Source: Chiloscyllium plagiosum
Lineage: Eukaryota
DNA length: 64,000 nucleotides
Reading direction: 5' to 3'
NCBI RefSeq assembly: GCF_004010195.1
Contig: NC_057736.1
Location: forward strand, 15,466,710 to 15,530,709
The position numbers were made by a program, and so were the translations under genes. Below, piece after piece: positions 4,545-56,761 of this stretch (position 1 is the first letter of the stretch; every line of letters begins with the position of its first letter). The notes below the pieces were generated by a model. That model worked only from the letters and a program-made list of their open reading frames with translations, did no database searches and was not told the DNA's origin.

Positions 4545-5339
4545 GTCAGCTTTGGTGCCTCAAGTGATGAGCTGAGTGACAAAGTGCAATATCCATCATT
4601 TTTCCGGACTATTCCAAGTGATTTGAAACAAGCAGAAGCAATGGTTCTATTGATCCAGAGGTTTGGCTGGAACTGGATCTCAGTTATTGCAAGTGACAAT
4701 CAATATGGACAGAATGGAAAACGGAGGGTGGTAGAGTTAGCTTCTGAGAGACAGATCTGTGTGGCTTTCCAGGGCTTAATCCACGATCCAGGATTAAAGC
4801 AAGAAATCATCAACATGATCACGTACATGAGTCTCAGTGAAGCCAACGTGATCATCCTGTTTGCTAGTCAACTTTATGCCAGAGCATTCTTTCAAGCAGC
4901 AGTTGAGGTAAATGTCACAGGGAAAATCTGGATTTTAAGCGAGTCATCTTTTGGAAATATAACAGCATCAGATATACTGAAAGCTAAAACAACTGGCACA
5001 TTCCTGAGCATTGGTGTCAAGCCGGGTCAAATGCCAGGTTTTGGAGAATTTCTAATTAAATCAATGGCTACCCAAAGTCCAGCAATCAATCAGAAACATT
5101 TAATCTCAGTGAAGGAAACAGAAAACAGTAAAGTGAACAGGCAAGAGAACTGTGCCCAGCTATGCAGTGAGTGTCAATATTTCACTTCTGCCACTGTTCA
5201 GGCCTTGCTAGGATCTTCAGTATGGAGCATCTCGTTTAATGTCTATGCTGCCATGTATGCTGTGGCTCATGCTCTGCATCAAGTCCTGAATTGCCACTCA
5301 GGATCCTGTGACAAGCCTAGAGCATTCTTACAATCTCAG
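4545..5339 (+). CDS. tas1r1: TAS1R-family taste receptor, exon 3 (Venus flytrap domain)
   Basis: Acceptor ttgcag|GTC at 4545, donor CAG|gttagt at 5340; 795 nt, phase 0/0. Translation VSFGASS..YPSFFRTIPSD..FGWNWI..NQYG..ICVAF..KIWILSES..VYAAMYAVAHALHQVLNC is typical of class C/T1R receptors. The symbol means TAS1R1-like; orthology is unproven. Confidence 0.93.
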
Positions 5340-6914: not shown

Positions 6915-7127
6915 TTGCTGGAGGGATTGAAAAAAGTAAATTTCACTCTGCACAATAACCTGATATATTTTGATGAAAACGGAAACCCTCCAATGGGCTA
7001 TGAAATCATTGCGTGGGACACACAAAATGAAAGCAGCCCCATGAAAGTGATTGGATCCTACAGACCCAACCCAGGTCGACTGATCATCAATGAATCTCTA
7101 ATCAAATGGAATTCTCCAACAGGTTTG
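6915..7127 (+). CDS. tas1r1: TAS1R-family taste receptor, exon 4
   Basis: Acceptor ttctttcag|TTG, donor TTG|gtaaag; 213 nt. Encodes LLEGLKKVNFTL..IYFDENGNPPMGYEIIAWD..VIGSY..LIINESLIKW. Confidence 0.92.
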
Positions 7128-8335: not shown

Positions 8336-8456
8336 GTCCCGATGTCAAATTGCTCCAGGGAATGTGATCCAGGCCAGTGGAAAAAACGGGACACCTTTCA
8401 CAGTTGCTGCTTTGTCTGCATAGATTGTCCTGCAGGAACCTTTGAAATCAATGATG
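8336..8456 (+). CDS. tas1r1: TAS1R-family taste receptor, exon 5 (cysteine-rich domain)
   Basis: Acceptor acacag|GTC, donor G|gtgagt; 121 nt, ending in phase 1. Encodes VPMSNCSRECDPGQ..HSCCFVCIDCPAGTF. Confidence 0.93.
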
Positions 8457-11395: not shown

Positions 11396-12318
11396 AATGT
11401 GTTAACTGTTCCTTGCAGCAGTGGTCACCAGAGAAGAGTTTGACTTGCTACGATCGGGCTGTGGTTTATCTGCAGTGGGGTAGCAATATTTCCATTGCAT
11501 TGTCAGTGATGGCCAGTGCTGGATTTTTAACAATGGTCGGCATTACTCTTGTCTTTGTCATTCACCTCAACACTCCGGTTGTCAAGGCAGCAGGAGGGAG
11601 GCTATGTTTCCTAATGCTTTTCACCTTGGCTTCTGGTTGCTGCAGTGTGTTCCTCTTCATTGGAAAGCCAAACAATTTCATTTGCAGAGTGAGGTGGCCC
11701 CTCTTTACTGTGAGCTTCACAGTCTGTCTGGCATGTATTTTTGTCAGATCCTTCCAAATAGTCTGTATATTTAAAATGGCCACCAAGTTGCCTAAAGCCT
11801 ATGATTACTGGGTTAAATATAATGGACTGTATGTGTTTGTGTTTGCAAGTACATCCATTTCAGCTATCAACTGTTCTGTATGGATGGTCCAAGAACCAAT
11901 AGTGACAGTGTCTAATTATAACCTTTCTCAAAAGGAAATATTTCTACTCTGCACTACTGACAACGATCTCTCAATTTTCCTGTCGGGCTTTCTGTACAAT
12001 GGGCTGCTGGGTTGCCTCTGTTTTGTCTTTGCTTTCTTGGGAAAAGATTTGCCAAAGAATTACAATGAAGCAAAGTGTATTTCCTTCAGCATGGTACTGT
12101 ACATTGCCTCCTGGTCTTGCTGCATTCTCGTCATTGCCTCTGGCTTCAGGCAGTATCTCCCCTTGGCCCAGGCTCTGGCTGCTCTGCTCAGCTTGTTTGG
12201 AATCCTGGTTGCTTATTTCCTCCCTAAGTGTTACATTATTCTGTTCAAACCTCAGTGCAACACAACTGTATTCTTCCAAAGTTGTATCCAGGATTACACC
12301 AAAAACAGAGCGGCTTAA
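11396..12318 (+). CDS. tas1r1: TAS1R-family taste receptor, exon 6 (end of CRD, 7TM domain, C-tail)
   Basis: Acceptor ttttacag|AA joins exon 5 in frame (G+AA = Glu). Seven hydrophobic segments with HLNTPVVKAAGGRLCFLML, VRSFQIVCIF, GKDLPKNYNEAKCISFS and YFLPKCYIIL..N.T..FQ..IQDYT, which are TAS1R1-like. Stop TAA at 12316-12318. Confidence 0.95.
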
Positions 12319-12876
12319 CAAGACAATGCTGTGGCTTTAAGAGGTGTGTTCTGTTCTTTTTGAAAGAGATTGGAAAACGGGTGTGTCTTGGGTGGTTTTT
12401 TTTAAGTTGGAACAATTGAAGCAGCCTGAGTGGGTGTGGTCAAGCTCTCACAGATCAAGAAGTTTTAGTAAGCTTTCAGCAGTTGTTGTTGTATGCTTGA
12501 AGAAGTGGAAGCTATTTTTCTCCCGCTTGATAAAGGGCCAAAAGCTGAGGGTTCCCTTCCTAGGCTGCTGGATTGCATGTGAATTTGCCTTTTTGCCACA
12601 GGGTGTATTTATGGGATGTCACTATTATGGAAATGGATATTGTATCTATCATTCTGTTAAGTTTTCCAATAAAGATGGTAATCTAAACTCTTCTTTCTTT
12701 GATTGTATTTTAACCATAGTGTTTGAATAAATTGTGTTTTGCTTAACCTGGAGTAGTTTGACAAGTCGAATTGTGTCTGGAACATAGCACTTCATATTTG
12801 CCTTTATAACAAGAAAAAGATAGGGTCAAGGCTACCTTCTTAAAATAATTTGAGGGTGTCTGGCCTGTCCATAACA
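12319..12876 (+). mobile_element. Probable solo LTR immediately after the TAS1R stop codon
   Basis: About 560 nt ending ...GTCCATAACA (LTR-type CA end), with internal AATAAA at 12668 and 12726. No clear 5' TG terminus. Confidence 0.4.
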
Positions 12877-14402
12877 CTAATAATTAAATAGTATCATGGT
12901 TATAGATGGTGAGTGGTGATCTGATTGAGGTTGGGGTGTGGGATAGTGGCTTTTAATTTGAATTAATATTCAGACGATTATTTTCTTAACTCTCCAGTAC
13001 TTTTCCCACTGCTCCTAAAGATACAATTCTAAATACCTTGGCTCTGACTAGATTCCAGTTTCTTCAGTCTCTCTTCCTGGCCATTATTTTCTCTCTCTCA
13101 GCTCTCACTTTCTCTTTTTCTCATTATTCCTTTAAATTCTTTCATTCCCTCAGTCACTGTCTTTCCCTGTAATGTTCTCCTTCTCTATTTCCAGTGAGCA
13201 CAAAGCATGTGAATAATTTCCCCTTTTCTCCACTAAGCACTTTCAGTTACTACTGGGGATGTTACAGGAAGCGATTACAGTGTCTCCCTAGGCCCTTCAG
13301 TCTCTGTCTACCTCAATTACTTCGCCGATCTGAAACTGTCAGTGCCAACTGAATAAGCTATTTGGGAACAGAACTGATGGCATCATTAGAAAATGATTCA
13401 GTAGCAGACTGGGAGACTCTGGAATCAGTTTAGCAGAACATATATATTGATGGGCTTAAAAAGATCAAGAGCCATCTTTGGGGCTTTAGTCAAACACTAG
13501 CTTTTGAATGTTAAAACATACTTTATAGTCCTTCATGTCATTTTGTTTTTTAGAAATTTAACAAACGTTTTACTTGTGTTGTATAGTCCGATCATTAATT
13601 GTCAGATTGAGTTTCTCATTTAATTAACATTCAGGCTTTGGTTGAACTTCTGCACTTCCACCTTTTGGTTTGTAGTTTAATCTGAATGCTTTAGTCTTAA
13701 ATCAAAGTGTCTTCAGTCAGTGCTGGCTGAGAAGCAGCCCTGCACAAACAGGATACCCTGCAGCTTTTGAACGGGTACATGTTACAGAAAGCCTTAAGGC
13801 TGCAACTATAGCAACTCGTTATGGTTCTGGAGGCACCTTCTACAAGACTTAATACTAAACCTAACGGTGGAGAAGTGGCAAAATGTGTTTCACTCAACCG
13901 CGTTTGGATGTGATATACTATCCTGCCACAAGGTGGTGCTGGACAGCCACATTTCAATTTTAGGTTTTATGGAGCTGATTTCGGTTTTCTTTTGTAACTG
14001 ATTCTCTGACCGGTTGGGATGTAATTCTCTGGTGACTCTCCTGTACCTCTCCCAACCCAATGGATTATCTTCACCCGTCAGTCCTAGGTACTTGCTTTAT
14101 GGCTGTAAACAGCATCATAGCTGATTGCTGTTTGCACTTCCAATGCACGCAGCTTGCCATTTAATTCCGTGATTGTATAAAATGGGTTCTAGTGAATCGG
14201 TAACCAGTTTCAGATCACTCTTCATTTGCAGTTCTACTGACCCCTACTTCATTCATTCTGCAACAGGAATCATGGGCAACATCTAAAGGTTGGGAACTGT
14301 GGCTAATTTTCTATTGTTCCAGTTCAGGCTAAGTATTACCCTTACTTCCAGTTTACATTTAAACAGTTTAACAAATCCTAAAGACACATATGTGATAAAA
14401 AC

Positions 14403-14464
14403 TTTAATTTTCAAAATTAGTTCAATCTTAATAAATAAAAAAACTAATACATTTAAAGTTTAAT
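14403..14464 (-). terminator. Candidate Ripply polyadenylation signals (ATTAAA x2)
   Basis: ATTAAA on the - strand at 14459-14464 and 14403-14408, in an AU-rich tract 135-200 nt past the stop codon. Confidence 0.4.
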
Positions 14465-14599
14465 TATAAATTAATATGTAAATATACAGAATAGAGATCA
14501 ATAACTCTCAGCTGATAAGACCCTATATGTATTGCATCAACTACATATCCACAATTGCAGTAAACATTAGTGTGCTTGCACAATGGATCCTGTCTCAGA

Positions 14600-14738
14600 T
14601 TAACTCTCATCTTCATTCTCTGATTCGCTATCACTCTCCTGATAAAATGAGATTGTTGCCTGCACCGGGAAATTCGCCAAGAGATGAGCTGCATCTTCGT
14701 ATAAATAATCAAACTGTTTAGATTTTGGCCACAGAAGT
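14600..14738 (-). CDS. ripply2: Ripply coding exon 4 (Ripply/Bowline homology domain, acidic tail)
   Basis: Acceptor ctttttcacag|A; encodes LLWPKSKQFDYLYEDAAHLLANFPVQATISFYQESDSESENEDES*. The four exons total 378 nt = 125 aa plus stop, with consistent phases. Confidence 0.95.
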
Positions 14739-16578
14739 CTGTGAAAAAGAAGGGAGAATAGTGTTTCAGTGTTCCACACTCTCTGATCTGGCCACATTTT
14801 CATTTCTGATGATAGGAGCTGGTAAACCAGGAGAGGTTCCTCATTAGTTGTTCTCTGTTCCATACCCTCAGACACTTTCAAGTTAAAACTCTCATCCTCA
14901 TACACACTCTCTCTTTACTGCTTCCCAGCTGCACTGAAATCCTGAGCTTCTCTGATACTGGTCCCTTGCACATTTCTCCATCTCTTCCCCCTCCCCACCT
15001 GCTATCTCCTTCTTTGTCCCACCCCAACCTTCACTCTCATGTTGCTCCTTTGTCCTTCCCTCCATCTCAGCTTTCCCTTCTCCCTGCGTCCTTCCTTCCC
15101 TCTCCCTTTTTCCCTCATTATTTCTCCCTCTGTTATATTGTTACACTATTCATAAAGAAATAGGAACAAATTGCTATGAAAATGGGCATGGAGGGTGGCA
15201 CATTTACTGTTGAACTGCGATCACGTGCTGATTAACAACTGATTAGCCTCTCAGCTGCTTGGAGAGTTGAAAGAAATATACTCAATGATGCTTTGGCATT
15301 TTGAGCCCAGAGTGTGACAGAACATATAACATTCTCTATCTGTCCCTCCTGCCTTCCCAGAATCCTTCCTTACTTCCCACCTTCCTATCTTCACTTCTTC
15401 TTGTCTAACCTTCTCTCTTTCTCACTCTCTTCCCCATCTTCCTCCATCCCTTCAACCACCTTTAGTGGCTATGATCACGTGCTCAGGAATTTCCTCACCA
15501 GATCCTTCTGTCTGTTCCTCTTACATTGTAATTCTCCTTAAAACCAGCTCTCAGATCAAACATTTGATCACCTGACCAAAGATCAGGTTTGCTGCTGTCT
15601 CTTTTGTCTCTCATTAAAGTCATTGTTCATGTTAAAAGTGCTTCTGAAATGCAGGTTACTTTTGAAAAGTGAAGGGCTGCAGATGCAGATGACTGTCACC
15701 CTTGTATGCATTTGTTTTGTCCTGAAGAAGATGAAGTGGCAGGGAAATGTTCATTTTCCACTTCAGGCTCTTATTGTCAAACTGCGCACTTTGAGTACAA
15801 CAAACTTTAAAAATATTTGCATTTAAATAGCACTTTTCACAACTTTGAGATGTCTCAAAGTGTTTATTTACATTTTTAGAGTGTGTAGCCATTGTTGCAT
15901 TGGCAGAAACATGGCAACCTGTTTATGCATTGCAAGATTTCACAAACAACAATGTAATTATAAATACAGAAAAAAGCTTCCCTCTCCCCACACTCCCAAA
16001 CTCAGAAATAACAGTCCTACTGCAGAAATTGCCCATTACAAACTGACTTGAGGATTGTTGGAATGATATTTCCAAAATATGCGTCTTGACAAAATCTTGA
16101 TCCTTCACCACATGTTTCAATTGACATTGCAAGTCAGTTCACTTGGGATGGGGCAGTTTAAACATGCCCCCATCCCTCTCCCACCAAAGCCATAGGATCG
16201 GTGGGTTTGCCCCTGACCAATACTGAAACCTTGCTGTAGTCAATCATTGAGGTCACAGCTAGATCTAACATTGCAGTTCTACTAGGATGGGCCTCACCAA
16301 GTTGATACTCAAAGCCTCAGTGTCTTAGGTCAGGCAGGAAGGGCGACTGATTGGATGAGGTACAGAGGATCAGCGTGTGTAGGCCTCATGTCCCAGTGAG
16401 AGTGTTATTCTGGTGCGGAAAGAGAGAATGTAAGGGTTTGGAATAACAAGGTCCCCTGGTCACCGAAGCCCATCATGTTTAAACTGGACACCAAATACAT
16501 GCTCATCAGATATTTATTGCTCACAGTTCCCTCCTCCTGAAAATCAGCAACACAATTAAATTCCCATGGTGTACTTAC

Positions 16579-16655
16579 TTGACCGGATGTCGAAATGCTG
16601 GGACTTTATCTCCGCTAAGTGTATGCTGAGTTCGCTCGCTCTCGGAGACATTCAG
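16579..16655 (-). CDS. ripply2: Ripply coding exon 3
   Basis: Acceptor ttctgttgcag|CTG, donor AA|gtaagt; 77 nt. Encodes LNVSESERTQHTLSGDKVPAFRHPV(K), the start of the Ripply homology domain. Confidence 0.92.
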
Positions 16656-17003
16656 CTGCAACAGAAAGGTGAGGATTTTGGGGCTGGAATAAATACCACA
16701 TTCTTTACACTAAAAACAATAAGTGCTGGAAACACTCAGCAAATCTGGCAGCATCTGTGAGGACAGAAACAGTGACTCTTTAAGGCGAATATGGTTCTTT
16801 TTCAGAACCACATTCTTCGTCTTCACTTCATAGTCTTAGAGACACCTAAGGTTCTAATACAGTGAAGATATCAATCTGGGGCAAGATACAAGTTATTGCA
16901 CACTCACACAGGGCATCACATACCCATACTGAGCAGCACACAGCCATTCTCCCTGAGTTTATGAGCTGTGTTATAAGGAGATGCCCACATGAGAGTTCCT
17001 GTT

Positions 17004-17316
17004 GGGCGGCACGGTGGCACAGTGGTTAGCACTGCTGCCTCACAGCGCCAGAGACCCGGGTTCAATTCCCGACTCAGGCGACTGACTGTGTGGAGTTTGC
17101 ACATTCTCCCCGTGTCTGCGTGGGTTTCCTCCAGGTGCTCCGGTTTCCTCCCACAGTCCAAAGATGTGCAGGTCAGGTGAATTGGCCATGCTAAATTGCC
17201 CGTAGTGTTAGGTAAAAGGGGTAAATGTAGGGGAATGGGTGGGTTGCGCTTCGGCGGGTCGGTGTGGACTTGTTGGGCCGAAGGGCCTGTTTCCACACTG
17301 TAAGTAATCTAATCTA
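17004..17316 (+). mobile_element. HE1-type tRNA-derived V-SINE (Ripply intron 2)
   Basis: A box TGGCACAGTGG, B box GGTTCAATTCC, V-domain tgtgtggagtttgcacattctccccgtgtctgcgtgggtttcctcc, (aatct)n tail. Confidence 0.88.
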
Positions 17317-17644
17317 AAAACTCATGTGTGTTTGGGATTTGAGTAGAGCTAGCAATGGGTATTGAAGGAGGAAAGAGTACCTTTCTCACAGCCACTACCT
17401 ACTGCGTAGCAGCATAGCCAGGGCTTCTAGTTAGTGCTGGTCACTGTGAACTGCAGTGTGAACAACATGAGGACTCCCACTCTTCATCACCAGGCCCATC
17501 AGCTGACAGCAGAGTCTGACTCAGCCGTGAGACCCTTTCTGGCCAAGAATCCACCAATGTTCACTATTCATTATGAAGAATTATCACTGGAGGGTGAGGC
17601 ATTTGAGGGTTGGAAGTTGTAATTGAACAACAAACAGAAAGGAA

Positions 17645-17850
17645 AATGTGTTGCTGGAACAGCATAGCAGGTCAGGCAGCATCCAGGGAACAGGAGAATC
17701 GACGTTTCGGGCATAAGCCCTTCTTCAGGAAACCCATTCCTGAAGAAGGGCTTATGCCTGAAACGTCGATTCTCCTGTTCCCTGGATGCTGCCTGACTCC
17801 AGCAACACATTTTCAGCTCTGATCTCCAGCATCTGCAGACCTCACTTTCT
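17645..17850. mobile_element. Head-to-head inverted pair of PLE-derived repeats with two hammerhead cores
   Basis: Core CTGAAGA-a-GGGC-ttat-GCCY-GAAACGTC on - (17701-17728) and on + (17740-17767); the arms are reverse complements. Confidence 0.8.
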
Positions 17851-17959
17851 CAACAAACAAAAAGACAAAACATTGGAAGAGGCCAGTGTTAAACCCAGAG
17901 TTGTGACAGCAACACACTGGTTAATGGAGAGAGAGAGAGAATTGTTGAACCAAACTTAC

Positions 17960-18035
17960 TGTTATCATCTGTCTTTGTTGTTCCCTTGCAATATCTTTGG
18001 GTGTGACTAACCATGGTCTCCAAACACTGCCGGCA
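17960..18035 (-). CDS. ripply2: Ripply coding exon 2 (WRPW Groucho/TLE-binding motif)
   Basis: Acceptor ctattaacag|T, donor ACA|gtaagt; 76 nt. Encodes (S)AGSVWRPWLVTPKDIAREQQRQMIT, with WRPW at 18011-18022. Confidence 0.9.
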
Positions 18036-18827
18036 CTGTTAATAGAAACACAACCAACTGGGTTAAGGAAGCAGGGACAGCAAGTTTGGAGAAATCAGGA
18101 CAATCAGAAGCTTGTAAACTCTACTTCAGTGTTGTCTTCCTTATTACCTCTTTATGCTCTCACGGGATGTGGGGCTTCATTGGCAATACTGGCATTTGTT
18201 TCCTGTCCCAATTTGTTCTTGAACTAAAGGGCTTGCTCAGGTATTTCAAAGGGCAGTTAAGAGTCAACCACATTTTGGTAGGTCCAGAGTCATATATAAG
18301 AGGGAGGATGGCAGACTGCCTAATGGACATTAGTGAAATGGGTGGGTTTTAAACAACAATCAATTAAATCTGTCCTTATCAATATCATGAGACAAACTTT
18401 ATAATTGCAAATTTATTAACTGAAATGAAATTCCACCATCTGCCGTGTTGGGAATTGAACCTAGCACCACCATCTTCCCCTTCAACTATCTGTTAGAGAA
18501 AGCTTGCGTGGCTGGGCTCCTAAATTATCAACACGTTCTGAGTCTGAGCTACCCCTAACCTTTGTCTGTCGCTCAGTGGGTTGCACTCTAGCCTTTGACT
18601 TGAACTCATAGGTTCAAGTCTATAACCCAGTCTGGCTCACCAAGTGGGAAGATTAAGGGAAGTCTATGCAGAGGTGCTGTTGTTTAGGTGAGATGTTATC
18701 ATTTTGCAAAGAAGCTGGAGAGTTCTTCCTGGTGTCCTGAATATTAACCAACAACACAGAGACTGAATATCTCTTCATTCTCACATTCCTGTGTCTGGAG
18801 CACGCCGTGCTTAATTTAATCTCCTAC

Positions 18828-19701
18828 AAAGTTTGTGAGAAGATTTGTAGCTCGGGTGCTCGTTGTTGTGGTTCTGTTCGCCGAGTTGGGAATTTGTGTT
18901 GCAGACGTTTCGTCCCCTGTCTAGGTGAAATCCTCAGTGTTTGGAAGCCTCCTGTGAAGCGCTTCTGTGATGTTTCCTCCTGCATTTATAGTGGTTTGTC
19001 TCTGCCGCTTCCGGTTGTCAGTTCCAGCTGTCCGTTGCAGTAGTCGGTATATTGGGTCCAGATCGATGTGCTTATTGATTGAATCTGTGGATGAGTGCCA
19101 TGCCTCTAGGAATTCCCTGGCTGTTCTCTGTTTGGCTTGTCCTATAATAGTAGTGTTGTCCCAGTTGAACTCATGTTGCTTGTCATCTGCGTGTGTGGCT
19201 ACTCAGGGTAGCTGGTCGTGTCGTTTCATGGCTAGTTGGTGTTCATGGATGCGGATCGTTAGCTGTCTTCCTGTTTGTCCTATGTAGTGTTTTGTGCAGT
19301 CCTTGCATGGGAATTTGTACAAACAGGACAAACAGGAAGACAGCTAATGATCCGCATCCATGAACACCAACTAGCCACGAGATGACACGACCAGCTATCC
19401 TTAGTAGCCACACACGCAGATGACAAGCAACATGAATTCGACTGGGACAACACTACTATTATAGGACAAGCCAAACAGAGAACAGCCAGGGAATTCCTAG
19501 AGGCATGGCACTCATCTGCAGATTCAATCAATAAGCACATCGACCTGAACCCAATATACCGACCACTGCAACGGACAGCTGGAACTGACAACCGGAAGCG
19601 GCAGAGACAAACCACTATAAATGCCGGAGGAAACATCACAGAAGCGTTCCCAAGCACTGAGGATGTCACCTAGACAGGGGACGAAACGTCTGCAACACAA
19701 A
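18828..19701. mobile_element. Penelope-like retroelement 3' remnant (GIY-YIG endonuclease) in fold-back arrangement
   Basis: The - strand encodes YKFPCKDCTKHYIGQTGRQLTIRIHEH..REFLEAW..INK. Arms 18891-19281 and 19325-19703 are inverted. 12-bp TSD ttaatctcctac at 18816-18827 and 19702-19713. Inserted in a Deu-SINE. Confidence 0.88.
19654..19693 (+). ncRNA. Minimal type I hammerhead ribozyme motif of the PLE
   Basis: gca-CTGAGGA-t-gtcacct-agac-aggggac-GAAACGTC-tgc: stem I gca/tgc, stem II, palindromic ACGU, GUC cleavage triplet. A mirror copy lies on - at 18901-18939. Confidence 0.7.
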
Positions 19702-21288
19702 TTAATCTCCTACGTTACAGAAATGAAATGATTGCATGCCAACACTACTTCTTTGGATGTAAATTGCTTTAAGTCATCCTCAGGTTTGAGAAGGCTATAG
19801 ACTACATTGACTATTCCCTTCATATCCATAAGTTGCACACATCAACAGGGCAGGCGCAATGCTTCCTCCCAGGAAGCTGTTGCTGTACACAGACACCAGC
19901 TGGAGATTGGCTCCTCATGTAAACAATGGTTTGTTGCTGATCCCCAATGAGCATAACTCTGTCTATTGGGGCTGTAACACGTCACTGGTATAGCAAACAG
20001 CATTTGTCCCATGACAGACTATTCTCTATCATATCACCAGAGTCAAACTGCTTTGTAACTTCAGTTCACTGATGGTTCAGTTGGTAAGAGCTGAGGTAAC
20101 CAGAGTAGTTAATAGGGGTTTCATGGCTTAAATCTCTGTCTGGAGTTGGAATGTTTTCCATTTGGAAGTGCTAGCACTGGATTTAGTACTCAAGAGGGAA
20201 ATCAGCCAGCTTTCCTGTTTGTTATTCTTAATTGATTCCCGCTGGATATGTCTCTGCATGTACCTTGGGTAATGACACTTACAGGAGAGATAAACATTAG
20301 TAGGCCACTGAGCCCATAGAGACTATTCTCTCACTCAGATAGTTTGTCACTATTCTGCACCTCAGCTCCATTTACCTGGTCTTGCTCCATATCCTTTGAT
20401 ACCATCCCCACAGAAACTCCAGTGGACCTCTCCCCCCAACTTTTTGAGAGTGAGGATTCCAGACAGTCCTTTTTGATTTCCCTCCTGAATAACAACTCTG
20501 GTTTTAAGATTGTTCTGGACTCCCATAGTGGTTCACATTTTGTAAAATCCTTTGATCGGGTCACCCTTCAACCGCATTAAGCTAAGGAAAATACGACGCA
20601 AGGCTATGAAACCTGACCTCTCAACGTAACCCAGGAAAGCCTGGCGTAATTCTGGTGAATTTGGATAAACTCTTTCAAGGGCAACTGAGCTGCTACCCCC
20701 ACGACTCGGAATGGGTCCCTGCAGCATCACTTGCCCCCTTTTGTACATCATCCTCTTGAGATAAGGATCATCTTTATTACTTTTGATTACTTTCTGTACC
20801 AGTGCTCGAGTTTACAGTAATGTGTAACACGCCCAACCCTCTCTGCTCCTCCAATGGTCTCTAGCCATTAAAGAAAATACCTGATTTGTTGTTATTTTAT
20901 GCTTCCATACACTGAACGCCGCCTGCCATTTTTTTTAAATTCTGCTCACTGTCTCTCTCAGGGCGCCCTGTCAACTTGGTGTCATCAGAAACTTGGACAC
21001 GAAACTCTCTTGAGTGAGGACTCCGGGAAGACGTGGGGATCCCGAGTAATTATTACATCTCACTGAACAGACTGTGTCTATATGTGTATATATACAATGT
21101 ATATATAGCACTGCTCCCAGACACCACCCACAGCTCAGAGAGAGGAACAGGAAGCTTGCAGTGGGTAACTTTGGGTTAGAGTGTTAAACTCAGCGCTGAG
21201 CCCCCATTTCATCTGCAGTTCGCTCGATGCTAGCACCCCGAAACTAAAACGCTCCCGGTTTCCCTGTCGGTGGCGCTGGGAATCCTAC

Positions 21289-21374
21289 CTCAGCCCTCCT
21301 GGCTGCTGAGCACTGGGATCGTGCAGGCAGCAGCACAGCCGGCTCCGGGCTCCTGACACTGTATTCCCCTCCAT
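21289..21374 (-). CDS. ripply2: Ripply transcriptional co-repressor, coding exon 1
   Basis: ATG at 21374; MEGNTVSGARSRLCCCLHDPSAQQPGGL plus AG|gtagga donor (phase 2) joins the WRPW exon in frame; lies in a GC/CpG-rich region. The paralog is uncertain (ripply1/2-like). Confidence 0.72.
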
Positions 21375-21960
21375 CTGGGATTGATGCCTGGGATCAATGC
21401 TGGATGTGGTGCTGATTTCCCCAGCCGCTACCGCTGCTGCTGCTCCTTTCCTGGGATCAGGTGGGAATCGGAATGACCCTGTCTGCTTCCCTGTCCTTTT
21501 TATCCAGAGCCTGGCCTCCCCGCAGACTCACTGTGGAAAGGGATAGGCTGCCAGCTGGGTGTCTTGCCCCTGCGATAAAGTCAGTGGTTGTGTCAACATT
21601 GTGGGGAGGGGGCCAAATGCTGGCCTTGGGTCGCAGCTCCAGGCCCCCCCCCCCCCCCACCCCTGCAGGAAGCAGCAGGGACAGTGTCAGGCAAAACAGA
21701 GTGCAGTCAGCAGAGAGAGAGGGGGCTGGCTCCAGTCTGTCACCCTCCTGGCATACTTTCCCACCCCGTCCATCATTAACAGGCAGCAATGAGAAGCTGT
21801 TAATCTCCCAACACCTCACAACCAGCGGGGCTGCTGCCTGCCCCCTCCCAGGCTCAGGGAGACTAGGCTGGGCACTGAGCAGTCTGAGGGTTAGCAGGAG
21901 CTGGCCTCTGTCAGGCTTTTTTGGGGCTTGGGGAAGGGTGGGGGGTATGGGGAATCAAAG
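21375..21960 (-). promoter_or_regulatory. Putative Ripply 5'UTR and promoter
   Basis: GC-rich. TATA-like GGATAAAAAGG (21495-21505, -) about 125 nt upstream of the ATG; E-boxes at 21458-21463 and 21552-21557; RBPJ-type GTGGGAA/TTCCCAC at 21461-21467 and 21758-21764; T-box half-site AGGTGTTG (21809-21816, -). Confidence 0.5.
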
Positions 21961-39039: not shown

Positions 39040-41860
39040 TCTGGCCTACATGTGACTCCAGACCGACAGTAATGTGGTTGACTCTTAAATGCTTTCTGAA
39101 ATAGGTGAGCAAGCTATTCAATTGCATCAAATTTCTACATAAAAGTCAATCAGGAATAAAGCAACAGACCATCCAGCACTGACTTAGGCACCAGCATTGA
39201 CAACAGCATACATGGCTATCTTAATCCTGCAAAACCCTCCTTATTTACATTTGGGGACTTGTCTTAAAATTAGGAAAGCTGTCCCACAGATTAGCTTGAT
39301 ATAGTCATACACTCAGAATAGTACCTCACAGACAATGTTCTGGATGCCACCATCACCATTTCTGGGTACAACCTGTCCCATTGACAGGACAGACCCATTA
39401 GAAGTAGTGGTACAGAGGTGTTCAGTTGGAATGGTGTTGCCCTGAGAGTCCTCAACATTGATACTGGACCTTATGAAATCTCATGGCATCAGATCAACCA
39501 TGAGCATGGAAACCTCTTGCTGATTGCCACCTGCCACACCACCAACCCAGCTGATGAATCTGTACCCCTTTATGAAGATCACCATTTAGAAGAAGCACTG
39601 AGAGTGAATCCATCACTAGGACCGAGCCGCCTGAGTCCTAAGGGACACAACTGTGAGAATGAGCTTGCAGCAGGTAATGGGGCAACAGCAAGAGGGATAA
39701 ACCCACATCATCTCATGCTCACAAATCTACCAATTACAGATGCACTGGTCTACAACAGTGTTGGCAAGAATGACGACAGCACAGTCCTTGTGGAGACAAA
39801 ATCTTTACTTCATATTGATACGTTCTATCATGTTGCGTGATACTAACACCAGGCTAAATATGACAGACTTTGAAGATTTAACAACTCAGAACTGGGTGTC
39901 TTTGAGATACAGTGGACCATTCAGCAGCAACAGAATTGTAATGAAACACGGTCTGTAACATCATGACCCAACAAATCCCCCACTCATCTGTTTCCACCAA
40001 GCCAGGGGATCAACTCTGATTCAACAAAGAATGCAAGAGAGTATGTCGGGAGCGACACCAGCATTTGCCACAATCTTTAGTCAGAAGTGCCAAGTGAATG
40101 ATCCATCTCAGCAGCCACTGGAGGTGCCCAATATCACAAATGCCAGTCTTCTGTCAATTGGATTCATTCTACGTGATATCAAAGAATGGCTAATGTCATG
40201 AGATTTCACAAAGATGAAGAGCACCCATCATATTCTGACAATGCTCTATTTACTCTTCATTTCTGTGGGATGTGGGTATTACTGGCTGGTCAACATTTAT
40301 TGCCCGTCCCTAGTTGCCCTTAAGAAGGTAGCGGTGAGCTGCTTTCTTGAACGGCTGCAGTCTACCTGCTGTGGATTGACCCACAATGCCATTAGGGGTG
40401 GGATTCTAGGATATTGACCCAGCAACAGTCAAGGAACGGCAATATATTTCCAAGTCAGGGTGGTGAGTGACTTGGAGGGGAACTTGAAGGCAGTGGTATT
40501 CCTATGTATCAAGTGCCCTTGTCCTTCTAGATGGAAGTGGTCATGGGTTTAGAATGTGCTGTCTGAGGATCTTTGGTGAAGTTCTGTAGTGCATGTTGTA
40601 GATGGTACACACCTGCTACTGAGCATCCGTGGTCAAGGGACTGGATACTTGTGGATGTCGTGCCAAACAAATGGGCTGATTTGTCCTGGACTCTGTCAAG
40701 CTTCTTGAGTGTTGTTGGAGCTGCACCCATCCAGGCAAGTGGGAGGTATTCCATCATACTCCTGACTTGTGTCTTGTAGATGATAAACACGTTTTGAGGA
40801 ATCAGGAGGCGAGTTACTCGCCACAGTATTCCTGACCTCTGAACTGCTGTTGTAATCACTGTGTTTATATGGCAAGACCAGTTGAGTTTCTGGTCAATGG
40901 TAATCCCCAGGATATTGACAATGGTGGATTCATTGATGGTAACATTAAATATCTGGTAACATGATTGAATGTCAAGTGATGGTGGTTGGATTGTCTCTTA
41001 TTGGTGATGGCATTTGTATGGCGTGAATATTACTTGGCACTTGTCAGCCCAAGCCTGGATATTGTCCAGTCCATTTGAACATGGACTGCTTCAGTATCTG
41101 AGGAGTTGCAAATGGTGCTGAACATTGTGCAATCATCGACAAACATTCCCACTTTTGACCTTACAATGGAGGGAAGGTAATTGATGAAGCAGCTGAAGAT
41201 GGTTCGGCCTAGGACACTACCCTGAGGAGCTTCTGCAGAGATATCCTAGAGGTGAGATGACTGACCTTCAACAACCACAACCATCTTCTATGTGTCAGGT
41301 ATGACTCCAAACACTGGAGAGTTTTCCCCATTACCCACTGATTTCAGTTTTGTTAAGGGTCCTTGATGCCACACCTGTTTAAATATAGCCTTGATGTCAA
41401 GGGCTATCACTCTCACCTCACCTCTGGACTTCAGCTGTTTTGTCCATGTGCCCCTGGTGGAACCCAAACTGGGTGTCACTGAGCAAGTTATTGATAGCAC
41501 TGTCGATGACATCTTCCATCACTTTACAGGTGCTCAAAAGTAGACTGATGGGATGGTATTTGGCTGGGTTGGATTTGTCCTGCTTTTTATATACAGGACA
41601 TTCCTGGGCAATTTACCACATTGGGCAATAGTAGTGAAGAGTTGAGCTTTAGAACTTGCCATGCTCCTAACTAAGCTGTTCCAGTACAACTACAAGATTG
41701 GCATCTACCTAGCAATGTGAACAATTGCTCAGACAAGTCCTGTCCACAAGAAGTAGTTAAAATTCAATCCAGCCAATAACCAGCCTGTCAGTCTACTCTC
41801 AATCATTAGAAAATGATAGAAGGTTCTATCAACAGTGCTATCAAGTACTATTCTTTAGCA
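39040..41860. mobile_element. Old LINE (CR1/L2 group) on +, with an opposite-strand copy of the same family inserted at about 40250-41630
   Basis: RT motifs VIALDIKAIF..VWH and IYKTQVRS.MEY..LAW on -; endonuclease-region remnants on +; same family at 61540-62290. Confidence 0.65.
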
Positions 41861-53510: not shown

Positions 53511-55284
53511 ATGTTTCAAAACAAGGCATCTCTGCAATGAGTGACTCCTATGAACATGGTGGATCACATTATGCTGATTGTAAAGGATTGTGAAGAACCT
53601 CTACAACTACCATAACAAGAGATGAGGATGATGATGGGGATGATGATGAGGCAAATGCAAATGTAGCTGAACCCTAATAGACAACAAAGCAGATAACTAA
53701 ATAAGAAGGTGAGGACACTGGCAAGTCAGACCACCACAAGGGGTACAGTCACAGCCAAAGTGTTCTGGGTTATCCTCTTCCTCAGAAGTAGGAAGAAAAG
53801 TCCAAGGGAAAGACAGACAGGAAGACTGTCAGAATTTACATATCAACAGACCTTTGCTTATGACCAGATTTGCTCACAGACCAACTCCATTTTGTGTGGT
53901 TCTTTTCTAGATCATGTGGAAGATATTGTTATGTTTCACAAATTTGGCTTGGAATGGAAAATGGAAACCTAGTCTCAGCACTGAATCAGTCACCAGCTGA
54001 ACTGGACCCAGCTCCACCTGGATTGTGGATCATGGTTAGATGCTTAAGGAATTGTGGCATCATAATGGGGAAGTGTCATCCTATTGACACACTGCTAGTG
54101 GACGGATATGACTATGGAGCTGTACCAGCAGGCCAACAGCATAACATTTTTTCCATGCTCAGAAAAACACATCAAATCAACAAAATCTATAACAGGCATG
54201 GTTTGTCACATCTACCCAAAAGCTGTGCTGCGTTTCTGATATCTGCAAAGCATGTGGCTCCAATTGACATTGGGCATTGGTTGCAAAGGCCAAGCCAGAC
54301 CTCAGAACAAAGCATAGGTAATTAATTAGATATTACAACACCCACAACACTGGCAGCATGGCAAGAGTTGAAAACTCACACAAATGCGAACACATCCATC
54401 ACTTTCAGAAACATAAAATGTGACAGCAAGCTTTCAGGTGACGACCATGCTTTCCATATTATAAATCTCACACAGCATGTCGATGCTATAAATCAATCAG
54501 AATATTTTACAACATTCACGGCCATATATCCTTAAAACAGGGTCAATACACCTTAAAAGTAAAAAGTCAGCAAGTGGATTAATACCAACATTTTACAATT
54601 GTGCATCCCTGAAAGACATATTTCAACAAGTAGCCTCTACGGGACAGCCTGCAAAAAAAATTCACATCATAAAATGGATCACAAATTCCAAGCACTGGCA
54701 CAGTCACACAACAGGGCCAATACATAAGATCATCTTGGCTTCCTGAAATCCTGTACATGGTTAAAACCAATGCTGGGTAGGACCAGTATGTACAGACCTT
54801 GATCAAGTCACAATTCATGAGCTTCAAACCCCATCAAGTGTGGTGGACAGAACACAAATGATGCATTCAAATCAATTGAAGTTGTAGACATCCTATTATG
54901 ATGATGGATCATAATCCCAAAGGATTTAGAGGCAGTTTTTACTTTTAATTCCAAAGTATGTTGTTTCTAAAAGGAGGACTGCTCCATAACACAGGCGGGT
55001 TTATATTCAGTGATGTATCAGCTGGTGCTATGTGAAGCCAATAGAATATTACACATGCTGATCCCTTCTCACCCAAGAGCTTAACAGTTTGGGGTATCCC
55101 ATCCAGAACAGTAACAAACTGGGAAGCTCGCCAAGGGTCTGGTTGTAACAAATTGGAGCCCTTGCCACAATTTGAACCCACAGATGAAATGAAGAACTAG
55201 AAGGGGTATTTTGTCAGTTTGAAAACAATTTTTAAGGAAAAAAAACGGCTTTTTGTATTTGAACTGGTACAGTATTGAAATATT

Positions 55285-56761
55285 CACAGGTGAGGTGCCA
55301 GAAGACAGGAGTTGGCTAATGTGGTATCACTATTTAAGAACGGTGGTAAGGACAAGCCAGGGAACTATAGACCGGTGAGCGTGATGTCAGTGGTGGGCAG
55401 GGTGTTGAAGGGAATCCTGAGGGACAGGATGTACATGTATTTGGAAAGGCAAAGACTGATTAGGGATAGTCAACATGGCTTTGTGCGTGGGAAATCATGT
55501 GTCACAAACTTGAGTGAATCTTTTGAAAAAGTAACAAGAGGATTGATGAAGGCAGAGCAGTTGAAGTGATCTATATGGACCTCAGTGAGGTGTATGACTA
55601 GGTTCCCCATGGGAAACTGGCTAGCAAGGTTAGATCTCATGGAATACGTGGAGAACTAGCCGTTTGGATACAGAACTGGCTCAAAGGTAGATGACAGAGG
55701 GTGGTGGTGGAGGGTTGTTTTTCAGACTGGAGGCCTGTGACCAGTGGAGTGCCACAAGGATCAGTGCTGGTTCCAATACTTTTTGTCATTTACATAAATA
55801 ATATGGACATGAATGTAGGAGGTACAGTTAGCAAGTTTGCAGATGACACCAAAATTGGAGGTGTAGTAAACAGCGAAGAAGGTTACCTTGGATTACAATG
55901 GGATCTTGATCAAATGGGCCAATGGGCTGAGGAATGGCAGATGGAGTTTAATTTAGATAAATGTGAGATGCTGCATTTTGGGAAAGCAAATCAGAGTAGG
56001 ACATATACACTTAATGGTAAGGTCCTAGGGAGTGTTGCTGAACAAAGACACCTTGGAGTGCAGGTTCATAGCTCCTTGAAAGTAGAGTTGCAGGTAGATA
56101 AGATAGTGAAGAAGGTGTTTAGTATGCTTTCCTTTATTGGTCAGAGTATTGAGTACAGGAGTTGGGAAGTCATGTTCCAGCTGTACAGGACATTGGTTAG
56201 GCCACTTTTGGAATATTGCATGCAATTCTGGTCTCCTTACTATCAGAAGGATGTTGTGAAACTTGAAAGGGTTCAGAAAAGATTTACAAGGATGTTGCCA
56301 GAGTTGGAGGATTTGAGCTATAGGGAGAGGCTGAACAGGCTGAGGCTGTTTTCCCTGGAGTGTCAGAGGCTGAGGGGTGATGTCATAGAGGTTTATAAAA
56401 TCATGAGGGCCATGGATAAATAAACAGACAAGGTCTTTTCCCTGGGATGGGGGAGTCCAGAACTAGAGGTCATGGGTTTTGGGTGAGAGGGGAAAGATAT
56501 AAAAGGGACCTAAGGGGCAACCTTTTCACACAGAGGGTGGTGCGTGTATGAAATGAGCTGCCAGAGAAAGTGGTGGAGGCTGGTACAATTGCATTATTTA
56601 AAAGACATCTGGATGGGTATTTGAAATGTAAGGGTTTAGAAGGATATGGGCCAAGTGCTGGAAAATGGGATTAGATTAGGTTGGGATATCTGGTCGGCAT
56701 GGATGAGTTGGACTGAATGGTCTGTTTCAGTGCTGTACATCTCTATGACTCTATGGCTCTA
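55285..56761 (+). mobile_element. HER1/CR1 LINE, 5'-truncated
   Basis: ORFs 55312-55569 and 55701-56423 carry [17 protein letters not shown] and KFADDTK; tail ctctatgactctatggctcta. Confidence 0.93.

Follow-up and report, generated by a model that had tools for sequence, protein, structure and literature searches.

Ripply-mediated removal of Tbx6 sets the borders of somites, and a link exists between RIPPLY2 and spondylocostal dysostosis. In the mouse, deletion of either WRPW or FPIQ from Ripply2 abolishes Tbx6 binding and degradation, WRPW binds TLE1/2, and the 26S proteasome comes down with Ripply2 in pull-downs (PMC5953544); in zebrafish, FPVQ is required for lowering Tbx6 (PMC4178057), and in amphioxus the somites express Ripply (PMC11136973). 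The open-licence literature, figures aside, yielded neither a fourth Ripply or ripply4 nor a vertebrate-wide study of Ripply orthology; the available part of the PMC10781636 main text makes no mention of Ripply, and a text search of the accessible part of the catshark paper PMC11979771 for Ripply or TAS1R gave no match. Here we describe a Ripply gene in a 64-kb stretch of the Chiloscyllium plagiosum genome (the window), where it lies tail to tail with a TAS1R gene. We propose that this Ripply gene is probably the fourth product of two whole-genome doublings (2R), namely a 2-beta ohnologue that is sister to RIPPLY2.

The gene lies on the minus strand, and its four coding exons, spanning 14600-21374, join into a single open frame of 378 nt that encodes 125 amino acids. 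Exon 1 (21374-21289, 86 nt) starts with the ATG at 21374 and encodes a variable N-terminus with Cys, equal to residues 1-28 of XP_043573099.1; exon 2 (18035-17960, 76 nt) carries the Groucho/TLE-binding motif WRPW at 18022-18011; exon 3 (16655-16579, 77 nt) has at its 3′ end F-x-HPV, with which the Ripply homology domain starts; and the coding part of exon 4 (14738-14600, 139 nt) holds the remainder of that domain, the T-box-binding motif FPVQ (14671-14660), ATISFY (14659-14642), an acidic tail and the TAA stop (14602-14600). The HPV motif (16589-16581) runs over the joint between exons 3 and 4 into LLWPKS (14737-14720). All three introns (3,253, 1,304 and 1,840 bp) are GT-AG, and two other donors tried for exon 1 both yielded stops. 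The splicing was assigned from the splice sites, the open frame and an identical public record, in that the spliced product equals XP_043573099.1 (C. plagiosum, labelled 'ripply1-like') letter for letter. This record sits on a 51,668,882-bp sequence that corresponds to chr27 in the supplement of PMC7677710.

Exon 4 alone matched the Pfam Ripply family PF14998 with 68.4 bits (cut-off 27, E 8e-19), exon 2 gave a weak match to the start of the model (positions 1-20, E 0.007), and the full record XP_043573099.1 likewise carries PF14998. A PF14998 match over the curated cut-off, WRPW, FPVQ, the acidic tail and the small size of 125 amino acids together place the protein in the Ripply family; a second Ripply copy was not found within the 64-kb window. 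The original prediction of a complete Ripply gene about 2.3 kb from the TAS1R stop was borne out, with four exons and 2,281 bp between the stop codons, and the motifs that it quoted (WRPW and ATISFY) are located as it implied. Its span of 12318-21374 ends correctly at the Ripply ATG and begins too early, at the stop of the TAS1R gene, the Ripply coding sequence starting at 14600. We conclude that the window protein, whose existing annotations disagree on its name, is an ordinary Ripply, and therefore that the gain lies in orthology and evolution and not in new biochemistry.

Orthologues of the window type were found in 15 elasmobranch species, both sharks and rays (C. plagiosum, C. punctatum, Hemiscyllium, Rhincodon, Stegostoma, Heterodontus, Scyliorhinus torazame, Cetorhinus, Pristiophorus, Hemitrygon, two Mobula, Rhinoraja, Leucoraja and Narcine), and their rows form a single clade (96/94) in a 54-row tree. 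WRPW and FPVQ are intact in the window protein and in every orthologue row that covers the region, and the core identity of the window protein to the Heterodontus, Pristiophorus and skate orthologues is 78-82%. The public labels conflict, 10 of the 15 species having ripply1-like, 4 ripply2-like or ripply2.1-like and 1 hypothetical; the automatic label 'ripply2-like' that had been foreseen occurs, as such or as 'ripply2.1-like', in those 4 species, and C. plagiosum itself carries 'ripply1-like'. No holocephalan orthologue was present among the matches listed. A bony-vertebrate member of the lineage was likewise not recognised, and the earlier wording, that the gene was lost in mammals, is too narrow. 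The public models of C. punctatum (older assembly) and Hemiscyllium (P0001 and P0004) extend into the intron before exon 3 and are therefore probably mis-spliced.

Nine slowly evolving Ripply proteins, among them five of RIPPLY2 type, were made into a profile that gave 1,006 matches, and the best 120 of these were listed. The 19 chondrichthyan rows in this set comprised 11 of the window type, 5 of RIPPLY1 type and 3 of RIPPLY3 type (3 of the 19 were profile members), and RIPPLY2 rows of turtle, lizard, bird, mammal and sturgeon were abundant in the same 120. Among the best 150 of 233 representatives, which are mostly unnamed, no RIPPLY2-type chondrichthyan row was recognised. Cartilaginous fishes likely have three Ripply genes, with the window gene in the place of RIPPLY2.

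Sharks have separate RIPPLY1 and RIPPLY3 genes, and Heptranchias has both. The RIPPLY1-type gene of C. plagiosum is on an 81.26-Mb chromosome and shares 46% core identity with the window gene on its 51.67-Mb chromosome; in Heterodontus, ripply3 is on a 126.5-Mb chromosome and the window-type gene on one of 65.1 Mb. Trees were built on ~90 alignment columns, with 10 of 100 rows that had both motifs dropped from an early tree, the Pristis RIPPLY1 row missing from the 54-row tree (motif mismatch in trimming), and 28 of 55 rows (outgroups, long branches and near-copies) removed before a 27-row tree and approximately unbiased (AU) tests. A split of RIPPLY1 and RIPPLY3 from RIPPLY2 and the window gene, which is the shape that 2R predicts, was recovered with moderate support (84/80 with 54 rows, 91/87 with 27 rows). 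In the 54-row tree, shark RIPPLY1 and RIPPLY3 formed clades of their own (100/100 and 100/96) away from the window gene, RIPPLY1 overall was not recovered as a clade, and the outgroup was not confined to one side of a branch. AU tests on the 27 rows rejected a grouping of the window gene with RIPPLY1 (p 0.027) and with RIPPLY3 (p 0.043), and the latter result, with the separate ripply3 of sharks, upholds the earlier view that the gene is not RIPPLY3-like.

Individual residues point the same way in part. The alanine seven places before FPVQ is found in 15/15 window-type and 50/52 bony RIPPLY2 rows, and the same place is glycine in 29/29 RIPPLY1/3 rows and in 8/9 rows that are unnamed or from lamprey. 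Before HPV, 46/52 bony RIPPLY2 rows have a tyrosine, which is present in 0/15 of the window type. The outgroup-like rows, unnamed or lamprey, have F before HPV in 9/9 cases and K after it in 7/9, and the unnamed ones may be invertebrate, judging by their place in the tree; what had been taken as evidence of a mixture of paralogue features is rather a retention of such ancestral residues. From these comparisons the window gene appears, with moderate support, to join the RIPPLY2 side, and it is an orthologue of neither RIPPLY1 nor RIPPLY3.

Bony RIPPLY2 (coelacanth XP_005995116.1, gar XP_006626088.1, caecilian XP_029451360.1 and Xenopus ripply2.2) shares with the window gene, at moderate support, its side of the tree, and also the alanine, WRPW, FPVQ and the acidic tail, and four exons are common to the window gene and Xenopus ripply2.1 and 2.2; the window gene differs in having F instead of Y before HPV and a short C-terminus that stops at the acidic tail. 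RIPPLY1 (Heptranchias XP_067852745.1; the 123-amino-acid C. plagiosum record P0192) has the family motifs, F before HPV and W in LxWP, as in the window gene, but shark RIPPLY1 is 46-50% identical to it in the core, has G in place of A, and lies on a different chromosome in C. plagiosum. RIPPLY3/DSCR6 (Heptranchias XP_067849381.1; Heterodontus P0262) shares the family motifs and an ancestral-looking stretch after WRPW, but has YLP for (L/F)WP and HFYND for SFYQE, with 38-39% core identity. The frog ripply2.1 (Ledgerline) group (Pseudophryne XP_063775736.1, Ascaphus MEE6519141.1; rows P0032, P0035, P0039, P0046) resembles the window gene in F before HPV, K after it and, in 3 of 4 rows, QE after FY, and its F-x-HPVK and mostly YQES are unlike other tetrapod RIPPLY2. 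This likeness consists mostly of ancestral residues, the tree link is weak (89/42, early tree) and does not resolve in the 54- and 27-row trees, and frog ripply2.1 as a member of the same lineage was set aside as a lead. In the JGI4.1 assembly, Xenopus ripply2.1 and ripply2.2 are both at scaffold ends, a position of ripply2.1 that is compatible with tandem duplication at the RIPPLY2 locus, and we regard it as very improbable that frog ripply2.1 is a surviving tetrapod copy of a fourth Ripply (RIPPLY4).

The position of the gene carries the argument beyond the trees. We take Cyb5r4, Snap91, Tent5a, Tbx18, Cep162 and Pgm3 to be the neighbours of human RIPPLY2 (6q14), and Wdtc1, Srsf4, Sfpq, Kcnq4, Sdc3, Ncdn, Smap2, Utp11 and Pum1 to be genes of human 1p34-36.1 / chicken chromosome 23. 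Chromosomes were assigned by comparing the sequence sizes of named protein records with the skate tables of PMC10115646 (rows searched in part). The skate orthologue XP_055512405.1 lies on a sequence of 32,980,643 bp, the exact size of Leri_26C in SI Table 8, which also assigns Clic4-2 to Leri_26C; 16 further rows of this chromosome (30/615 places) include the nine genes from Wdtc1 to Pum1 listed above, as well as Eya4-4, Khdrbs2-1, Serinc1-1, Pdia6-2, Rpl13a and one unnamed gene. The human RIPPLY2 neighbours are elsewhere, Cyb5r4 (9.2 Mb), Snap91 (71.2 Mb), Tent5a (80.4 Mb), Tbx18 (82.7 Mb) and Cep162 (83.0 Mb) on LER5 and Pgm3 on LER8 (SI Table 10, PMC10115646), so that the skate orthologue, on LER26, is off the SNAP91/CYB5R4/TBX18 chromosome and in this respect unlike bony RIPPLY2. 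Orthology to RIPPLY1 would require a place with Morc4, which is on LER12, and C. plagiosum has its own RIPPLY1-type gene beside the AU result given above; orthology to RIPPLY3 would require the MORC3-side chromosome LER13 (PMC10115646), together with the RIPPLY3 clade and the YLP and HFYND motifs, and the window gene and its skate orthologue show none of these.

In SI Table 3 of PMC10115646, LER5 or LER8 is the 2-alpha side and LER26 is entered as 'LER26 = KJ_2beta?'. The skate orthologue is consequently on the fourth paralogous chromosome, the CLIC4 side of human 1p, and the window gene is inferred to share this position. This is the sole member of the paralogon without a human Ripply, and a fourth 2R copy would be expected at just this place, the 2-beta label being tentative. 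The original prediction of a fourth 2R copy is supported by this macrosynteny, with the skate orthologue on LER26 together with Clic4 and not on LER5, LER12 or LER13, and not by its own argument from TAS1R and 1p36, as skate Dvl1 is on LER30 (PMC10115646). In the rows searched, the skate tables hold Ripply3 alone, in an expression table, and no Tas1r. Pdia6-2, at 21.96 Mb on skate LER26, is possibly a further 2-beta ohnologue that humans lack.

Under our reading, the first genome doubling would have produced an ancestor of RIPPLY1 and RIPPLY3 and an ancestor of RIPPLY2 and the window gene, and the second would have produced RIPPLY3 (LER13 side), RIPPLY1 (LER12), RIPPLY2 (LER5/8) and the window gene (LER26). 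The 2-beta copy would then have been kept by elasmobranchs and lost by bony vertebrates, with the reverse for RIPPLY2 (2-alpha), unless the latter is merely unseen. The version with three genes and reciprocal loss, in which elasmobranchs lost RIPPLY2 and bony vertebrates lost the window gene, has in our estimate about an even chance, and a version in which an unseen RIPPLY2 persists in sharks is improbable. The Kazald quartet, Nodal/Lefty and nanos1 are reportedly further 2R ohnologues that were differentially kept. Such cases also include wnt6b and cspg5, and section 7 of PMC10115646 counts 19 ohnologues that chondrichthyans retained and bony fishes lost. In cases like wnt6b and cspg5 the member kept in cartilaginous fishes is missing from bony vertebrates or mammals, whereas in Ripply the loss is apparently reciprocal, and therefore the gene count stays at three and the swap is hidden.

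Several observations weigh against an ohnologue. RIPPLY2-type rows number 0/19 among the chondrichthyan rows in the best 120 of 1,006 matches, in which no genome with four Ripply genes is shown. The window clade stands in a fork among RIPPLY2 rows that neither tree resolves, and ~90 columns are unable to separate a RIPPLY2 orthologue from its 2R sister, so that sequence alone is not decisive; coelacanth ripply2 has the same stretch around WRPW and the HPVKLLWPKSK motif, as an orthologue would. The 2-beta label of LER26 bears a question mark in its source (PMC10115646), and the window's chromosome is taken as the LER26 homologue from the skate orthologue and general shark-skate synteny. Within the window only TAS1R6-3 stands beside Ripply, with no paralogous flanking gene (196 frames, 21.4-64 kb), and this neighbour suggests that at least one incoming gene has arrived at this spot. 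Finally, skate does not keep the human SNAP91-RIPPLY2-CYB5R4 block together (Snap91 at 71.2 Mb and Cyb5r4 at 9.2 Mb on LER5), and a breakpoint was therefore on offer for a move of RIPPLY2. The original prediction itself held that it would fail if only three Ripply genes existed and this one grouped firmly with RIPPLY1 or RIPPLY2. Part of this came true: the chondrichthyan rows in the best 120 of 1,006 matches fall into three types, and the window gene groups with RIPPLY2, though at just 84/80 and 91/87; a 2-beta copy, too, would be expected to fall there.

The strongest competitor is that a true RIPPLY2 orthologue moved, in the common ancestor of sharks and rays, from an LER5/8-type to an LER26-type chromosome, landing there by chance with its molecular job unchanged. 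This would explain why chondrichthyans, like bony vertebrates, show exactly three Ripply types among the matches listed and why the gene groups with RIPPLY2 in trees and residues, and it would need one event in place of two losses; the scatter of the human RIPPLY2 neighbours over skate LER5 and LER8, a TAS1R6-3 neighbour that looks like an immigrant as well, and the resemblance of coelacanth ripply2 around WRPW also fit. We nevertheless consider it unlikely. LER26 is 33 Mb of a 2.2-Gb skate genome, ~1.5% of the assembly (PMC10115646), and a random landing on the predicted home of the missing copy would be rare; chondrichthyan chromosomes change slowly (PMC11406177); and the RIPPLY2-type tyrosine is missing from 15/15 window-type rows, though it may be a bony-fish novelty. 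The weighing of ohnologue against moved RIPPLY2 is a rough judgement and not a computed test. That RIPPLY1 or RIPPLY3 was duplicated in chondrichthyans alone to give the window gene seems to us highly improbable. The ripply1-like label that NCBI gives in 10/15 species, a core identity to bony RIPPLY1 (49-52%) that matches the identity to bony RIPPLY2 (44-52%, over the full core), and sturgeon ripply1 as the best non-shark phmmer match would all suit such a duplicate, but the high identity to slowly evolving RIPPLY1 rows arises because ancestral residues are shared, and the distinct shark RIPPLY1 and RIPPLY3 clades, both AU rejections and the alanine/glycine difference before FPVQ stand opposed. 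Human TAS1R genes lie at 1p36, and on a further explanation Ripply and TAS1R would be ancient neighbours on one 1p36-type chromosome, with the TAS1R link marking the paralogon. The 2,281 bp between the genes and the location of human TAS1R genes on chromosome 1 (PMC10781636) agree with this, but the flank of the TAS1R cluster, Dvl1, is on skate LER30, which is GGA21 (chicken 21) and CLG-P in SI Table 3 of PMC10115646, and not on LER26, and TAS1R genes expanded by tandem duplication in jawed vertebrates and then by translocations (PMC10781636); of all the explanations we give this one the least credence. Human 1p36 combines two ancestral chromosomes, a TAS1R/Dvl1 side (LER30) and a CLIC4 side (Clic4 on LER26), and the TAS1R neighbour is therefore uninformative on the paralogon; TAS1R linkage was rejected as paralogon evidence.

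The neighbouring gene is on the plus strand, its stop ending at 12318. Four exons with a frame open across all joints were identified: an internal exon, presumed exon 3, encoding the ligand-binding domain (4545-5339; Pfam ANF_receptor, E 1e-41), presumed exon 4 (6915-7127, with the acceptor at 6915 or 6924, either in frame), presumed exon 5 with the start of the nine-cysteine domain (8336-8456; NCD3G, E 4e-13), and the last exon with the seven-transmembrane domain and the stop (11396-12318; 7tm_3, E 3e-61). Compared by eye, its C-terminus is nearly identical to that of C. punctatum T1R6-3 in the Supplementary Data of PMC10781636 and has no match to the T1R6-1, T1R6-2 and T1R4 ends displayed there. 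From the class C G protein-coupled receptor domains and this subclade match, the neighbour is identified by sequence as TAS1R6-3 of the chondrichthyan T1R clade. The initial 4.5 kb of the window did not reveal the first two exons of the gene, which probably lie upstream of the window. In the ancestral arrangement, the TAS1R cluster has DVL1 and MXRA8 as its flanks (PMC10781636), and TAS1R6-3 is apparently off that cluster, on the LER26-type chromosome (skate Dvl1 being on LER30); most likely it is an unrelated gene displaced here from the DVL1-MXRA8 cluster chromosome.

The spacer between the convergent stops (12319-14599, 2,281 bp) contains the 3′ ends of both genes, with plus-strand AATAAA at 12668 and 12726 and, in the AT-rich 3′ flank of Ripply, two minus-strand ATTAAA hexamers (14464-14459 and 14408-14403) that are candidate polyadenylation signals by motif match only. 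A GC-rich stretch at 21400-21950, immediately upstream of the Ripply start codon, is a likely promoter. T-box half-sites of the motifs tried numbered 0 in the 5.6 kb upstream of Ripply and 6 in the whole window, against 5.55 by shuffling. Intron 1 holds, at 18891-19703, an inverted pair of ~400-bp repeat copies whose opposite-strand frames have near-identical translations. The 21.4-64 kb upstream was covered by a splice-site scan and by Pfam on 196 open frames of at least 52 amino acids, from 587 unmasked frames of at least 30 amino acids, a search that short exons escape; no host gene was found in these 42 kb (21375-64000), where Pfam gave a reverse-transcriptase fragment and one sub-threshold match. 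The region consists mainly of fragments of short and long interspersed nuclear elements (SINE and LINE), with reverse-transcriptase-like frames near 41033-41245 and 55279-56761, and 21% of the window matches itself.

Whichever history holds, we think it quite probable, by analogy with the mouse and zebrafish proteins, that the window protein acts as an adaptor between Groucho/TLE and T-box factors at somite borders. WRPW would bind Groucho/TLE and the FPVQ domain would bind the T-box of Tbx6, and in the anterior presomitic mesoderm the complex, jointly with shark RIPPLY1, would repress Tbx6 targets and direct Tbx6 itself to the proteasome. More tentatively, and at slightly under even odds, the ohnologue reading can be extended to an as yet unnamed fourth vertebrate Ripply, RIPPLY4, such that somite borders would be set by RIPPLY1 and RIPPLY4 in sharks and rays and by RIPPLY1 and RIPPLY2 in bony vertebrates, the sisters having been lost reciprocally and the shark 'ripply2-like' genes being hidden paralogues. 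If the window gene is the 2-beta ohnologue, the Ripply quartet would be complete on a paralogon that is already known, comparisons of segmentation between sharks and bony vertebrates would have been pairing paralogues, and the sorting of alpha and beta copies that followed the second genome doubling could be tested cleanly on this case.

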